64,000 bases of DNA from Eledone cirrhosa (Eukaryota), in the NCBI GenBank assembly GCA_964016885.1, contig OZ024745.1:72602001-72666000 (forward strand), written 5' to 3'. The notes under the pieces are model-generated. The model was not told the DNA's origin. It was given only the letters and a program-made list of their open reading frames with translations, and made no database searches. Shown here piece after piece: positions 7,941-64,000 of this stretch; within the stretch, counting starts at the first letter, position 1, and the number at the start of each line of letters is the position of its first letter. The position numbers and the translations under genes are program-made.

Positions 7941-9182
7941 GTATGTGTGTCTCTTTATTGTGACTAAATTCATACTTCCGTTTTGTCATGTCATGATAAT
8001 AGGGCTTCCTAACAACCGTGTCCCTTGCAAACATGAAAGGAATACGTCTACTCTTTGAAGCGGCAATTTTCATCTGCTTCGCGCTTAACATTGCATGTTA
8101 TATAAAGTAGAAGGAAAGACTGCAAGTTGAAGAAAAGCATAATTGATATTTTTTTAAGTATAACACAGTTTATCTTTAAACATTTAACTAAACGATTCTC
8201 CTTCAATTCTTTTCTCTTCGGCAGAACTATATTTCAAAGTTTAACCTTAATTCTACTCATAAATATAACACAAATCATCCCTGTTCTGACTCTAAATAAC
8301 ACTATTCCTATTTTTCAACAATATTTCAGAGCTAACATATTTTTCATAATTATTTAAGTCATCCTTCAAAGCATAACCCTTCTTTTATCTTTAAGTATAA
8401 CAAAACATGCATTCTTGAGAATATCATTAATATATTTGTTTATGTGATAAATAACTTATCTTCTTCAGTGTGATGTGCCATGTATAATATATTCTAAAAT
8501 GTATCGATAATACACTTACTTCATCTCAAAATTTCTAGCTTTTTGTATGAGAAATCTATTTATACTTAACCTTATCATCAATCATATGAAGAAAAAATTC
8601 CATTTCTCATTCGTTTATTCCTTCATCATTATTTGTTTAATTATTTTTAAATAGAGCTTAAATTATGTAATAGATGTAGATTAGAGTAATATTGAATTAT
8701 CATAAGGAAATTACCCTTGTCACGGAAGTTGTATATCTAATAAAATATCATGGAAATTATAATGATCAATTATAAACACATGTTTACTGTGTTAAATACA
8801 ATCAAATTAAATAGAGGTTTTGAAGCAGTTAAATAAATAATTCCTATAACGATTGCGTTGATAATCACGCAAATACTTTCTTTAACTTCTCACTGTAAGT
8901 TTAACCCTTTATAAATAAATATATGTAATACAAAGAAAGGGATACGTGGTGTGAAGTACAAAAGTTTCCTACAAAGGTAACATTGAATAGCTATGCAATA
9001 TCTACAAATTTCATATAACATGGCCGTATTTTAAACGTCTATTAAATATAGATTTTGAGAGCACTCAGTTCAAACTGTCCTCAAATTCTTCTCTGTATAG
9101 TTTTGCAATAATTGTAATCTATTCTTTGATATTTGAAAAAGAAATCTATAATTGCTGTTACTATCTGTATATAAATATCGGA

Positions 9183-9370
9183 CAACATGTTTTGCAGCAT
9201 ATATTTACGGCTCCTTACGTTCTGAGTTTCAAATTCCGCCGAGGTTAGCTTTGTCTTTCATCCTTATGTTGTAGATAAATAAACTACCAGTAATACATTG
9301 CGGTCAATATAATCGACTAACCGCTTCGCTTCAAATTGCTCGCTTTATGCCAAATTTAGAAACAATTATG
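9183..9370 (+). mobile_element. SINE family A, diverged
   Basis: TTACGTTCTGAGTTTCAAATTCCGCCGAGG...AGAAACAATTAT. Other decayed copies lie near 2420-2610(-), 3030-3130(-), 3920-4100(-), 4555-4690, 4870-4995, 23965-24130(-), 25990-26180, 49200-49320 and 53205-53280. Confidence 0.7.
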
Positions 9371-17775: not shown

Positions 17776-17944
17776 GGAATAGAATGAAACGAAATTTCAT
17801 TTCTCACTCTTAGTACGGCAATTACTTAAATGTAAGTATGTATGTATGTATGTATATGTACGCTAAGGAATGGCATCTTTTGGACTACGTCCTAGTCAGG
17901 ATGCGTGATAGACAGGATGTGCAGTGTGTTCGTGTTCTTCGTGG

Positions 17945-20569
17945 ACCACCGCCTGGTACGCGCAAAAGTGAAACTAATCACCAAACGTAAAATCCGGGCT
18001 CCTGGTGTTACCCTGCCCAAAAGATTGAATGCTACTCGTCTTAAGGATAAAAATGTGAAGAGGACATTGGAAGAAGAGATGCAGGCTGCAGATCTTGGTG
18101 AGGATTGGCCGACCCTTAAAAAGTCGGTTTATGATGTTCTGGGATTGGTGCAGCGAAAACATCAGGACTGGTTTGATGAGAATGATGTACATATAGAAGA
18201 CTTGTTGGCTGATAAGAGGCGTGCTCTGTCACGCTACTTGACGGCAAAACCACAGGAGAGGAATACGTTGCATGAGGAGCTCAGGGATGTAAAATCACGT
18301 GTTAGGCGGAGTCTTTCTCAGATGAAGGATCAGTGGTGGAGTGAGAAGGCCGGTGAGATACAAACTGCGTCTGATTGCAATAACACAAAGCTGTTGTACA
18401 GTCTCTTGCGTGAGGTTTATGGACCGTCTTCTTCTCTGGTGACACCGCTTCGCAGCAAGGATGGCAAAGAGCTTCTTCGTGACTCACAGGGAATTCTACG
18501 AAGGTGGCGAGAGCACTTTGATGATCTTTTGAATCAGCCGTCTGTCGTCAGTGAAGATTTCCTCAATCTAATTCCAGAAAGTCCTGTGAAAGTAGCTCTC
18601 GCAGAACCTCCGACGCTTGTGGAGGTTGCAGTGGCTATTTCGAAGCTGAACAGTGGAAGATCTCCAGGTATGGATGGCATACATGCTGAGCTCCTACAAT
18701 ATGGTGGTGAGAGACTCCTGCAACATCTGCACTCTTTGTTTGGAAGGATATGGGCTAATGAATCCGTACCTGAGGACTGGAGGGATGCAGTAATGGTGGT
18801 CTTGTACAAGGGAAAGGGTAACAGGAATGATTGTGGGAACTACAGAGGTATATCATTGCTTTCTGTCGTAGGGAAAGTTTTATGTAGGGTGCTTCTGGAC
18901 CGTCTGCTGACACACATTGCAGATTGTGTTCTTCCTGAAAGTCAATCTGGTTTTCGTGCTGGACGCGGCACTACTGATATGATCTTCTCAGCTAGACAGC
19001 TCCAGGAGAAGTGCATTGAACAAGGCTTGGATCTGTATCAGGTTTTTGTCGATCTGACAAAGGCTTTCGATACTGTCAACAGAGATGCATTATGGAAGGT
19101 TCTCCAGAAACTTGGTTGCCCTGATAAATTCCTTGCTTTTGTTAGATCTTTCCATGACGACGTGAAGGCTTGGGTTAATGTCGGAGGTAACATGTCGGAG
19201 CCTATCTCAGTAAAAAATGGAGTGAAACAGGGGGATATTCCAGCACCGACCCTGTTTGCCATATACTTTGCAATGGTTTTCTGTATTGCATTCAGGAATT
19301 GCGAGCATGGTGTTTACATCCGATATCGAACCTCAGGCAGCATATTTAACATCAGGCGCTTTGGTGCAAAGACAAAAGTATTTACATCAATCATAAGAGA
19401 CCTCTTATATGCAGATGATTGCGATCTTGTAGCGCACACAGAGAGTGATATGCAGCACATTTTGAATGCATTTTCTGACGCTTGCACTGCCCTGGTTTTG
19501 ACTGTCAGTCTCAAGAAAACCGTCGTCATGTACCAACCTGCCCCTAGTAAGCAGTACACTGAACCAAACATCTATGTGTATGGCAAACGACTTGGAGTGG
19601 TTGATGAGTTTGTCTACCTGGGAAGCACTGTCAATCGATACGGCAACCTTGACAGTGAAATCTCACTTAGGATTAGGAAAGCTAGAAAGGCGACTCTGGG
19701 GTCGGCGGGACATATGCAGGAGGACAAAGGTAAAGGTGTACAGGGCATGTGTACTCTCTTGTCTTCTTTATGCCTGCGAGACCTGGGTCACATATCGACA
19801 CCACCTTAAGCAATTGGAGCGTTTCCATCAGATGTGTCTCAGACGGATCCATGGCGTTCACTGGAGGGACCACATCAGTGATGTCGAGATTTTGGAAAGC
19901 TCTATGTGTGACAGTATAGAAGCTCTTGTGCTTAAGCAACGACTCCGTTGGAGTGGTCACCTTACCAGGATGAAGGATTCTAGAATACCAAAACAACTCT
20001 TCTATGGAGAGTTGGTTAAAGGAAAACGACCGCCACATAAACCAAAAAAGAGGTATAAGGATTCCTTGAAAGCCTCTCTGAAAGACGGTAACATCTCTGC
20101 TGATACATGGGAAAATGTTGCTGCTGATCGTAATAAATGGAGAAAGACTGTATATGAGGGAAAAGTTGCCTTTGAGGCATCTCGAATCGCACACGAGAAA
20201 GTAAAGCGGGATGTGAGGAAGGGCATTGCTGTTGCACTTCCAGACGGCGAGGGTCCTCCTATGGTGCTGACATGCAGCGTCTGTGCGAGACTCTGCCTAA
20301 GCAAAGCTGGACTCGAAAGTCATCTTCGCAGTCATAAAGTAAGACCAGTGGTTGACTACCAGGGTGCTGTTGGAGATGCTACTCATCATGCTTGCCAAAC
20401 ATGTGGTAGAGAATGTAAATCAGCAGGAGGGCTCAAGCGACATGCAAAAGTACACGAACTCCAACCACAGCCGACTATTCCCAGTGAATGTTTTGGTTGC
20501 CGACTCTGTGCAAGACATTTTAGATCATTGGCTGGGCTAAAAAGCCACATTCGATCGCAGCACTGTTAG
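17945..20569 (+). pseudogene. disrupted RTE ORF (RT + 3x C2H2)
   Basis: The ORF-track frames 17905..19809 and 19574..20569 are one protein broken near 19680 (IRKA / GKLERRLW). A further frameshift near 17945 separates the endonuclease remnant. Confidence 0.9.
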
Positions 20570-22422: not shown

Positions 22423-23244
22423 TGTTCTGCAAGTTGTGGCCCAGGTCATATGAAACGAAGTGTTGTTTGCACAACTAAAATGTCAGATGGACGTCATTTG
22501 CCTATAAAGGAACATATGTGTACATCAAACAAACCTGATACTATAAAATCTTGTTTTACGAAGGCGTGTAAAATTGATGCTCAATTTATACCTTTAATCC
22601 GTTCAGAAAATCTAACCTTTATTCAATTAAAGCAGGTTCCGTCAATAAACGTGAGAGTTGGATCAAATGCTGTAATTATTCCAAAGACACGAGTTACAAT
22701 AAGATGTCCAGTAAAAAACTTCCCACCACATATAGTTAACTGGAAAAAGAATGACTATATTCTACCATTATATGGTCGTGTGCGCAAATCTATGAAAGGG
22801 GCTTTGAAAATTCGTCATGCGATAGCTGAAAGAGATGCGGGAGTTTACACATGTTTTGCAGGTTCTCTACAAGCTAACTCTTCGATTCAATTTCAGACGT
22901 TAAAGAACGCTCAAAAAATTGCTTTAGCTTTTAATTCGGCAGATGACGATTTACAGACCAAGGTGAAGAAAAATTACAAAATATCTCCGGGCATTATTGC
23001 TGATGCTAGTGGAACTCGATACAAAAAAGTACAATTTCTTACCAAAAAATGGTCGCCTTGTACCGTTACATGCGGTTCTGGTACGCAGATGAGAGAGGTC
23101 AACTGTGCAATTAAAACTGATAGTTACCTTAAATTGTACCCTGACATGATATGTGTGAGAGCTGGCTTACAGAAACCTGAAAGTATTCAAAAATGTGTAG
23201 AAATGCACCAATGTCCAACGTGGAGAATTGATAAATGGACGAAT
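22423..23244 (+). CDS. ADAMTS-like exon: TSP1 + Ig-like domain + TSP1
   Basis: Pyrimidine tract and AG at 22421-22422, GTAAGT at 23245, 822 nt open. Reads CSASCGPGHMKRSVVC (TSP1), VTIRCPV...W...LKI...DAGVYTC (Ig) and WSPCTVTCGSGTQMREVNC (TSP1). Confidence 0.95.
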
Positions 23245-23489
23245 GTAAGTACATTATTATTGTACTCTAATATACTTTTCATTGCTTATCTAATCTTTCC
23301 TTTGCTCCTTTAAGTGAAATTACAAATTTTCATTAGCTCTCCTATTCAAGCACACGAAATAGGTACTCTCGCAATTAGGAGAGTTAGGTGATTCTCTATA
23401 TTTGTTAAATTCACAGTTGCCCATTATATTACAGCGGCTCCGTACCTATGTAAACTGCAACGGCAAATGAAATGGGGGATCTCTATTCC

Positions 23490-28121: not shown

Positions 28122-28170
28122 GATTCCTGATGATTTCTAAAGAATGAAACAGTTCTAGTCCTGTAGAATC
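28122..28170 (+). ncRNA. type I hammerhead ribozyme, canonical core
   Basis: GATTC-CTGATGA-T TTC TAAA GAA T-GAAA-CAG ttctagtc CTG-TA-GAATC, with a GUA triplet. Confidence 0.78.
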
Positions 28171-33478: not shown

Positions 33479-34086
33479 ATAGGGAGAAAAAGACGATTAT
33501 TAGGAAGAAAAATATCTTTTTTTCCCTTTTATTTTTTTCCCTTTTTTCTGTTTAAAACAAAATATTTTACTTTGTGTGAAGTGTTAAGGTATTTATTAAT
33601 TAACAATGGCATTTATATATTTATTTATATATTTAATAATTGTCTATTACTGGTTTCAGCATTTTATGCATTATGAAAGGGAGGAATTTGTATTGGTGTA
33701 AAATGTTGATGATATTGAACATTGGAAATGGTGAAGAAAGAATAATGTTATTTACAATCAAGGTTTTTGAAGTGAAAAGAAAAATGAAAAAAAAAGAGGG
33801 TAATGTGGAACATGATAAGGTAATGGGATAGAAAAAATAATATTATTTACAGGCATAGTTCTTGAAGATAAGCAGTTCAAAATGTGTTATTATTGCAAGA
33901 GTGTTTAGTTGATCCATGGTGGAGGCCTCTTGCCATAATAACAAAAACCTTGTTTGTAAATAACATTATTCTTTCTTCACCATTTCCTTAACATGTTCAA
34001 CATCACCAACATTTTACACCAATACAAATTCCCTCTTTGATAATGCATAAAATGCTGAAACCGGTAATAGACAATTATTAAATATA

Positions 34087-38949: not shown

Positions 38950-39751
38950 TTCAGCCAATAGATGATACTTGTAATGCAAGTAGCCATTTAGAAATCAATA
39001 AAAAATCACTCCTTTAGTATCCCAAAAGACAGTCGTCCTGATTTTTCCGACTGACTTTTGTGTCTTGAACATTTGAGTTTTTGGAGACATCGAGTGACGC
39101 CATTCCATCGAGTGCCTTTTTGACTCAGGTTCATAATAATTAATCCAAGTTTCATCACCTGAAATAAACCTTCTAAAGAACATGTTCTCTTTTTGAATGA
39201 ATTCAAGGAGCTCAGTGCTGCAATTAACCCATTCAGTCTTATGCTCAACTGCGAGTTGTCTTGGTACCCAACAGGCACAGACTTTTGCAAGTGAGTCAAC
39301 AATTCTGTGAGTTCTACCATTACTTACTCCAAGCTCTAATGCCAACTCATCAAGGGTTATGCGCCTATCAGCTCTGATTAAAGCGTTTGATGCTGCTTTG
39401 TTGGCAGAGTTAACAGAAGTTGATGCGTGACCAGCTTGTCTTCTAAGCTTGCAGTTCCAACCTACACATCTACGCACATCGCTATTGTCTAAGGCGTCAC
39501 CTTTATAAACATGTTTTAGTCTCTTGTGAATGTTAACAGTGGTTTCTTCTACAGCAACAAGGAATTCAATTACTGCTCTTTGCTTTAAGGGGAAATCAAC
39601 TCAGTCACTCATCCAAATCTGAAAAACAAAATGAGATATTTTAGTCTCAAGAAGATAGGTGTCTTTACTTTGTGCTAAATTTCAACTCATTCTATAAAAA
39701 ACATGATCCTTCTATGATAAAAAAGGAATTACATTTTGCCTGGCCCGCGTA
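38950..39751 (-). mobile_element. mariner transposon relic, 5' half
   Basis: Reads KQRAVIEFL...IHKRLKHVY (HTH), RRITLDELA, WVPRQL, ISGDETW and TVFWDTKGVI. TIR-like TACGCGGGCCAGGCAAAATGTAA ends at TA 39750-39751. Contains stops and is truncated. Confidence 0.88.
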
Positions 39752-45157: not shown

Positions 45158-45279
45158 TTTGCCGGGACAAGTCTCGCTACTGCTCATTGGTGACCTACAT
45201 GAAGATGTGCCGTTATCCTCAGTTCAGAATAGAATGTTGCCGCTCATGTAGCAATCACGTTTACCGGAGGTATCGTTGA
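45158..45279 (+). CDS. ADAMTS-like terminal coding exon, PLAC domain (not in ORF track)
   Basis: TTCTCTTTTTCTAG acceptor. Phase 1 start fits the previous exon (G+TT=Val). Reads CRDKSRYCSLVTYMKMCRYPQFRIECCRSCSNHVYRRYR*, the six-Cys PLAC pattern, with TGA at 45277-45279. Confidence 0.92.
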
Positions 45280-56442: not shown

Positions 56443-56679
56443 GCGCACACAATTCAAATGATGATGCATTATTAGTTTCGAAGGCAATCATTCAGTTGTT
56501 CGATCAACGTGAACTACAGAACGTTTGCTGTTAACATAATTCCCGAGGCAAAACCAGTGATATATACATACAGTGATGTATATATATTGTATATTAAAGA
56601 TATAGCTAAATATAATAGAGGAATGGGGCCTGTTGGGATAAGCCCTACCTTACCAGGGATATACACACACACACACACG

Positions 56680-56784
<105 letters not shown>

Positions 56785-56816
56785 GCTGAAGTAGGGCTTA
56801 TATATATATATATATA

Positions 56817-57127
56817 AACACGTGAGCGTGACATCGTCCCATCTCCATACACTTGCTGCAGCAATCTCAGTGCTTCTGACGGAGTTTTCCCCAACCGTAC
56901 AAGAAACTTTAAGTTTGTTCGTTGCTCTGTGCTCATTGCTTGACGACCTGAAACAGAGGACATGTATATAAAATTATGAAGGAAAAAGTTTGATCGCTGC
57001 AGAGAGCTAAGATTACAGTTACATTCTCCAGGGGGATTACTTTGAAGGAGAAAACTCTTATTGTGAATTTTGGGTTTGAAATAAATCTTTTGTGACATCA
57101 GTCCTGGAACTTTTCTGACACACCTCG

Positions 57128-62420: not shown

Positions 62421-62623
62421 GTTTCTCGTAAATCTGTCACCCTTCAGTTATTCAATAAATACTTAAATACATAATACAAACACACACACACATATATATA
62501 TATATATATGCGTGTGTGTACATATATATAACAAAGGAAATGTGGTAAGGAACCAGATGGACCATAACGCACCAGAGTACTCAATACTTAGGGTAGTAGA
62601 GTGGGAAATAGGAAAAAGTATGA

Positions 62624-62717
62624 CCCCGACAGCAGAGCTCAAGCCGTATCGACGGCTATTTCTGGACTAAATTAGAATATTTAGCCTGGTGAATAAATAG
62701 CCGAACTTGTCAAGGGG
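62624..62717 (-). ncRNA. type I hammerhead, U3-A8 variant with long helix II and GAUA in place of GAAA
   Basis: Minus strand: CCCC-TTGACAA-gtt CGGCTATTT ... AAATAGCCG tc-GATA-CGGC ttgagctct GCTG-TC-GGGG. Confidence 0.68.
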
Positions 62718-63475
62718 GTACTTCCTTATATGGGAAGATTGTAGTTGTCAAGTGGATTGGTTAAAATTTGTTGTAAACACAAATAAGTCTATCATGGCAT
62801 TTAGTGGGAGGTAGGGGTGGCTGAACTTGCCTGTAGAACAATAGGGGAGTGAGTGGAGCGGTCAAGCGTTGAAAGTGATATGTATACAGCAGAATCTAAG
62901 GATAGTGTATGAAGTGGAGGAGGGAGGTTATAGAATAGGTAAATCGAATGAGAGTAGGAGACAATAAAAGATAATAGAAAGAAATAAAAAAAATATCTAA
63001 AAATCACAATGCTATCTTACAATTACAGGTTAATAAGTTGAGAATAGAAAAAAATTGTAGAAATTACAAAACTGATACAAAATTTGCTATAAGTAGTTAG
63101 TAAAACGTGTTAGGCCAATTCTATCTTAAAATTACAGGGGTGGGGGAACTGATGCTACAGAGGCCCGATGGGCTGCATCAGGGTAGGCGAAAGGGGAAAA
63201 GCAGACGAGGAAGAAAATTGGGGGTGGAAGGAAGTGATAGGATGAGACAGGAGAAGAAGAAGACAAAGAGGAAAAGAAAAGAGATACAACTACCTATGTA
63301 AGCTGGGGTTTCCCCTAACTTATTCGGCAAGTGGGGGAGGGTCAAGCAGAAATTGAAAATTGAAAATTAGAATTGGTGCGCCAATTCTAATTTTCAATTT
63401 CTGCTTGACCGGCAATCGCTCTGTATAATCAGTTTCTGATTATTACTAGAATTCTATAAGAATCAAACATTCATG

Positions 63476-63570
63476 ATTTTCAGCAAACAGGCGGAGTACT
63501 TAGCTTTGATAAGCACCAAAAAGTGCGAAACAGAGCTCTGTCAGCTTTATCTCCCCTGTTTGCTGAAAAT
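63476..63570 (+). ncRNA. type I hammerhead ribozyme, U3-A8 core variant
   Basis: AGCT-TTGATAA-GCAC caaaaa GTGC-GAAA-CAG AGCT CTG-TC-AGCT. All three helices pair and the cleavage triplet is GUC (cut after 63542). Helix I extends through an internal loop to a 16-bp stem. Confidence 0.8.
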
Positions 63571-64000
63571 TAAAGTAAGTGAGATTGTCACTACTCTAAA
63601 ACAATAGCGTAAGGTCTTCGAAATGCTTTTAATTAAGCATACAGTGTATTGCAAAATACACTATATATACATTCATATATATATGGCTATTTCAGAGCAC
63701 CAATTCTAATTTTCATATATATATATATATATATATATAGGATTATCCTGGATGCAGTAATGGTTAATTACTACACTGGATGGAGTTGACGTACTAAATG
63801 ACAGAATCGAACGATCATTATACTGCAACCACAAACTGAAAGCTAAATTCTCTCACTATAAAATAACTTAACATTCGAACCCGTAACTATAACATTGCTT
63901 TCTAGCTAACTACTTTCTCTCAATAACAACTTCTTAACTATATCCACCCACTACAAGACAATACCCTGCTTATCACTATAAATGGAAACTTAGTGCAATT

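Follow-up and report, generated by a model that had tools for sequence, protein, structure and literature searches.

A U3-A8 type I hammerhead motif in a 319-bp tandem repeat of Eledone cirrhosa, likely a non-LTR retrozyme

The window, a stretch of 64,000 nucleotides from the AT-rich, 3.0 Gb genome of Eledone cirrhosa, contains near its end a hairpin that resembles a hammerhead ribozyme with two altered core bases. The locus raises the question whether this is a hammerhead with a maintained variant core, to what kind of element it belongs, and how the variant arose. We consider it probable that positions 63476-63570 hold the type I hammerhead of a repeat (family A) that is young, 319 bp long and non-coding. 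This repeat is likely a non-LTR retrozyme, likely copied and inserted by the reverse transcriptase (RT) and endonuclease of a Penelope-like element (PLE), probably of the Hydra clade. The U3-A8 pair would have been inherited from the founder of a sub-lineage, and cleavage is predicted mainly for the dimer. The features of the window are listed in Table 1.

Table 1. Hammerhead-bearing repeats of the window and their parts.
Feature	Positions	Strand	Remarks
Family C motif derived from a hammerhead, U3-A8, ACCGGU palindrome, stem II closed by U.U	34030..34070	+	helix I not formable
5'-truncated 3' end of a Hydra-type PLE (family B)	62493..63342	-	RT and GIY-YIG coding upstream in longer copies
Family B hammerhead, U3-A8, long stem II	62615..62730	-	A14U at ~62648, likely inactive as judged by sequence
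Short inverted fragment of the family A unit start	63340..63379	-	joined directly to element B at the latter's truncated 5' end
One complete family A unit (non-coding tandem repeat)	63381..63699	+	319 bp
'Tail': 16-nt repeat of the unit start, then (TA)n	63700..63739	+	
Type I hammerhead hairpin of family A	63476..63570	+	outer helix 16 bp, GGAG/CUCC, internal loop, core helix I 4 bp, stem II, palindromic stem III
Core U3-U4-G5-A6-U7-A8-A9	63506..63512	+	U3-A8 pair is the family A consensus
Stem II, 4 bp (G10.1-C11.1), loop 6 nt	63513..63526	+	two pairs altered on both sides in sister family A2
Helix III, 12-nt palindrome, predicted dimerisation arm	63530..63541	+	predicted cleavage site after C63542

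The hairpin is a real hammerhead motif. U3 lies at 63506 and A8 at 63511, with GAAA at 63527-63530 and GUC with C17 at 63542; the sequence has the type I core N3-U4-G5-A6-N7-N8-A9 with a Watson-Crick 3-8 pair, G12-A13-A14, A15.1-U16.1 and H17. The initial annotation had read the core in the same way, changed at positions 3 and 8 with GAAA and GUC present, and had cited the C3-G8 pair of the hammerhead, which the available part of PMC3884650 confirms. Its extension of helix I through GGAG/CUCC into long outer arms was correct as well, and the arms (63476-63491/63555-63570) pair perfectly. Helices II and III had both been called perfect; this holds for stem II, but helix III is a palindrome without a loop. 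The 95-mer 63476-63570 folds with z = -8.7, equalled by none of 200 shuffles. The Rfam model Hammerhead_HH9 matches 63489-63564 with 26.5 bits (E 4.4e-4), below the gathering score of 52, a shortfall that would not be surprising where the core is a variant and the sequence not from an amniote. An Rfam scan of the whole window gave no hammerhead among the 150 of 208 matches listed, nearly all of which were microsatellites matched to miRNA models.

In the window one unit is followed by a 16-nt tail and (TA)n; this copy carries a single hammerhead and probably represents a dead-end insertion. Family A copies are about 96% identical to one another, and the repeat is young. In all, 107 stretches, some overlapping, were examined; exact matches number at least 180, and a first look gave 1249 candidates. 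Partial tandems account for 33 of 77 family A loci of 10 kb each, an inverted arm sits at the 5' end in 52, and one locus (L172) holds an array of eight units. Runs of (TA)7 or longer come after 59 of the 77 copies and are found in 297 of 1540 background windows; TA runs within the unit itself confound this comparison in part. The DNA upstream of a unit is in all sampled loci either unrelated, an inverted arm or the end of a further unit, and no non-unit sequence is shared there among the 77 loci except in one 41-nt pair ending in TA. Coding sequence and an LTR arrangement are absent from the sampled loci. Judged by its DNA features, a low-GC tandem unit of 319 bp with one type I hammerhead per unit and dimers to multimers, family A is likely a non-LTR retrozyme. 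It would be a new retrozyme family, while the U3-A8 variant and the element class have both been published before.

The insertion site is probably intergenic, because an exon for the PLAC domain of an ADAMTS-like gene lies 18 kb upstream of the 63476-63570 copy and PLAC is usually the last domain; an intronic site in this gene was rejected on these grounds. Exons of the ADAMTS-like gene (TSP1, Ig and PLAC domains) were seen at 22423-23313(+) and ~45160-45252(+). The window also contains a frameshifted non-LTR retrotransposon ORF with C-terminal zinc fingers at 17896-20569(+), which we take to be RTE-like, and transposase remnants at 38995-39600(-) and ~56560-56900(-), presumably mariner-like by their motifs.

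Since helix III has no loop, a monomer can close it with a tetraloop and no more than 4 bp. A pairing probability of about 0.01 is obtained for core helix I, and likewise for helix III, in the predicted ensemble of the monomer, because the 5' strand of helix I together with U3-U4-G5 pairs with the palindrome; by secondary-structure prediction the hammerhead fold lies 2.9 kcal/mol above this misfold. The minimum free energy (MFE) structure of the homodimer is exactly the dimeric hammerhead (-96.5 kcal/mol vs -85.8 kcal/mol for two monomers). Cross-pairing of the palindromes has a probability of 0.74-0.98 in five of seven natural family A tandems, and the two without it both carry mutated palindromes; for one variant of sister family A2 the dimer MFE is not the hammerhead. 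Helix III is palindromic or near-palindromic in four different sequences. The off-helix of the monomer is 89.6% paired, with one two-sided change, and C3 in place of U3 would deepen the predicted trap by 2.7 kcal/mol. Family A RNA is predicted by these folds to cleave mainly as a dimer, and a cleavage assay on the monomer could therefore give a false negative.

Family A2 comprises repeats of 310-318 bp that are about 80% identical to A; their helices I, II and III have changed by covariation, with U3-A8 retained. A tandem array of A2 with about 14 units was seen at G000:C2:207697244-207701764. U3 and A8 occur in 36 of 38 A2 anchors, the other two being out of register, and the pair is present in all 30 aligned copies (15 of A, 15 of A2). 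In the covariation analysis of these 15 + 15 copies 97.5% of the cells are paired, versus 36-51% in slid controls; the cells stem from few subfamily splits and are not independent events. Eight pairs, in helices I, II and III and the outer arm, are altered on both sides between A and A2, against a shuffle mean of 7.6.

The strongest rival explanation is a core of weak or no catalytic activity. The PLE enzyme would then recognise the RNA structure, tandems would come from tandem precursor transcripts, and U3-A8 would be a hitch-hiking founder change. The predicted misfolding of the monomer would agree with this, and family C has reached at least 307 matches with a helix I that cannot form. The available text of PMC11167929 describes a PLE hammerhead that is dispensable for insertion in vitro and needs protein for its cleavage, and in the pairwise mutagenesis of a type III hammerhead, as far as PMC9901934 was accessible, activity was restored by the G3-C8 swap alone; U3-A8 was not conspicuous as a rescue in that deep scan, where other double mutants of the motif were low. 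A dead core is nevertheless judged unlikely. The core bases are essentially invariant across the ~20% divergence over which the helices of A and A2 covary, and relatives in an independent sample have a further two-sided change in stem II with 63506 and 63511 unchanged among the rows listed. In family B the free position 7 differs between subfamilies, and positions 3 and 8 do not.

For the preferred reading of a working hammerhead, the mechanism that we infer builds on the repeat anatomy, the copy census, the covariation and the single origin of U3-A8 on the tree. Tandem family A copies would be transcribed, and pairing between the palindromic helices III of two units would allow both cores to fold. 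Cleavage after C17 would give 319-nt monomers, which would be ligated into circles; in the monomer the palindrome and the helix I/U3-U4-G5 strand would keep the ribozyme off. A PLE enzyme might nick TA-rich DNA and copy the RNA beyond one full unit, which would lead to partial tandems with inverted 5' arms. In the accessible part of one preprint, eight of nine Xenopus retrozyme dimers gave no cleavage in vitro (bioRxiv 2026.07.22.740005). Craig et al. 2021 (PMC8557442), in the part consulted, describe as typical of PLE insertions partial tandems with inverted 5' copies, short tails and ends of (TA)n. Family A insertions have this anatomy, namely partial tandems, an inverted 5'-truncated arm, a short tail and microsatellite ends, which supports PLE dependence.

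A PLE copy adjoins family A in the window. Proteins of family B have a C-terminal GIY-YIG, DKT and RWR motifs, a CxCX5C linker, and CxxC and CxH around the E/N, with no CCHH, and the elements end in (TA)n; by these motifs, compared with the published description, family B would be a Hydra-clade PLE. Pfam gave no match for two family B protein fragments. Hydra-like PLE coding fragments are present in 29 of the 77 family A loci. The A-B junction of the window lies at 63340-63345, and a second one was found at L118 near 8845-9200; template switching during a single insertion event could account for such direct fusions. They occur at two of 37 5'-facing ends (P 0.04-0.14), a frequency only suggestive of a partnership. 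Insertion of A into an existing B copy was rejected: neither the window nor the 17 kb that follow it contain the 1.5-kb part of B that belongs upstream of the break, so that fusion or deletion is more likely. Contig depth is far higher over the last 140 bases of B (62541-62680) in runs X1, X2 and X4, and loose ends there carry a related hammerhead; this is possibly a short, abundant element with the 3' end of B.

Unit A could itself be the terminal repeat (pLTR) of an autonomous PLE, which would call for ORF-bearing copies outside the 107 stretches sampled. This is decidedly improbable, in spite of an insertion anatomy like that of PLEs, in view of the arrays of up to eight units, the invariable unit end, inverted arm or unrelated DNA upstream, and three sister families that are likewise ~310-320-bp repeats with a common backbone. 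The pLTR of a coding element was rejected for lack of common upstream sequence and of homology to PLE UTRs. Among the 81 UTRs searched, no PLE 3' UTR was homologous to unit A; the UTR matches to A all came from three loci that resemble adjacent or chimeric insertions.

The sister families also bear on the origin of the variant core. A2, A3 and A4 all share the unit length and backbone just mentioned; A3 is 72-74% and A4 58-63% identical to the other families. A3 (L079:2500-2950, L220-L249) has C3G8 in 34 of 39 copies, U3A8 in none and U3G8 in one, four being unparsed. A4 (L119:5066-7621, L126, L215) also has a C3-G8 core and includes a homogeneous 310-bp array adjoining an A insertion. Both were found by a covariance model on fetched loci, a search that may miss more distant sisters, and both are older sisters of A/A2. 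On a tree of 29 picked copies, with two mis-parsed rows omitted and a midpoint root only, A and A2 form a clade with support 100/100 (97/93 without the hairpin columns), and A3 and A4 fall outside. By parsimony the change to U3-A8 has a single origin in this retrozyme superfamily, followed by inheritance.

A census of family A cores, in which positions 3 and 8 were left free, found U3A8 in 174 of 180 copies, U3G8 in three, U3U8 in two, C3A8 in one and C3G8 in none (0 matches in the control versus 180). Independent decay of C3-G8 copies after insertion, although both changes are common GC-to-AT transitions and the genome is AT-rich, has virtually no chance of being the source and was refuted, as no copy of the 180 is C3-G8, merely four carry a single transition and only ~0.05 copies with both changes would be expected. 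The initial annotation had proposed a maintained variant core that strict CUGANGA searches would miss, to be abandoned if the family consensus were C3-G8 with U3A8 at chance level. The census, together with the retention of U3-A8 in A2 amid covarying helices, bears out this proposal.

The initial annotation had further placed the same U3/A8 pair in two unrelated hammerheads, at 34037-34043 and 62707-62713(-). Both sites do carry U3 and A8, but neither appears intact. The first, in family C, is a hammerhead-derived motif and not an intact hammerhead by its sequence; U3/A8 is found in 35 of 35 aligned copies, and helix I is at most ~1 bp in every one. The second is the family B copy, which reads GAUA for GAAA, alone among 39 aligned copies. 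Among the first 100 listed of 611 family B matches, 96 cores are U3A8, two C3A8, one A3A8 and one U3C8. In addition, an inverted pair of canonical C3-G8 hammerheads with U.U-closed stem II, from a different repeat family, lies in the window at 28127(+) and 28115(-).

A descriptor scan of 662 kb of unselected DNA found 45 intact motifs and none in the reversed control, which speaks against chance matches; 31 cores were C3G8, 12 U3A8 (from about six families) and two others. U3-A8 is a common minority core in this genome, and the earlier description of a rare variant is not upheld; the variant is also already published. Searches with a strict core would thus undercount the hammerheads of the genome by these 12 of 45. 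Extrapolation to ~10^5 hammerheads genome-wide is rough, because insertion flanks may be repeat-rich. More U3-A8 hammerheads in unrelated sequence were seen at L128, L175 and L136, one of them family C-like with an intact helix I. Another tandem repeat with a C3-G8 hammerhead and a short palindromic helix III occurs at L038:2350-2915(-), with a spacing of ~468 bp, and at L151 and L171.

A wider reading can be offered only tentatively. The superfamily might have crossed from C3-G8 to U3-A8 while mobile, with U3 favoured as it tunes a conserved switch between an inactive monomer and an active dimer; inverted arms, TA ends and A-B fusions could be footprints of mobilisation by a Hydra-clade PLE, and about one quarter of the extrapolated 10^5 hammerheads could be invisible to CUGANGA searches.

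The published systems were compared from the available parts of the respective reports. No paper uniting hammerhead, retrozyme and U3-A8 was found in the literature search, although supplements of the 2014 and bioRxiv papers cited below may list similar motifs. For octopus or cephalopod hammerheads and retrozymes Craig et al. alone was relevant, with nothing on family A in the part seen. Perreault et al. 2011 (PMC3088659) give several natural examples of C3-G8 to U3-A8 covariation, stated to be active in vitro; here, a tree of one repeat superfamily in addition shows where the switch falls relative to the C3-G8 sister families. Such paired natural sisters allow a comparison of core tolerance in vivo and of the crossing of a two-step core change.

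About 1,300 minimal U3-A8 hammerheads, missed by a C3-G8 descriptor, are reported from Cercyon PLEs of Schistosoma mansoni (Cervera & De la Pena 2014, PMC4209133). Family A resembles these in having U3-A8 as a family-level trait, a palindromic helix III and a dimer model; the Cercyon motifs are minimal hammerheads in pLTRs with a helix II of 7-8 bp, whereas family A combines a 4-bp helix II with a long outer helix and lacks an ORF. The Cercyon type is matched more closely by family B than by A. With the Hydra clade, as described in the accessible part of PMC8557442, family B shares DKT, RWR (RWK in Craig et al.), CxCX5C, CxxC, CxH, the lack of CCHH, (TA)n and a 3' hammerhead. It differs in U3-A8 and a very long stem II; the Hydra-clade rows of File S2 are C3-G8 in 26 of 26 cases, which the descriptor may require. 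The U.U-closed stem II of A3, A4 and C is also found in many of the listed Hydra hammerheads.

Retrozymes have been proposed as passengers of PLEs in 2020 (PMC7229834) and in 2026 (Li, Clavereau, Pollet, bioRxiv 10.64898/2026.07.22.740005). In the latter, as far as available, dependence is derived from co-occurrence and pLTR homology in vertebrates; here it is derived from insertion anatomy, with no pLTR homology to A. This anatomy supports the proposed dependence of animal retrozymes on PLEs; the significance of the findings as a whole is modest. Metazoan non-LTR retrozymes are described as 150-450 bp low-GC, non-coding tandem units with a type I hammerhead that co-occur with PLEs (Cervera & de la Pena 2020, PMC7229834, in part), and dimer-dependent cleavage is known for those of the axolotl. 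Family A differs from them in its U3-A8 core, its 12-nt palindromic helix III and the PLE-type inverted 5' arms. It is like them in being a non-coding, low-GC tandem unit with one type I hammerhead and a short helix II, present as dimers to multimers.
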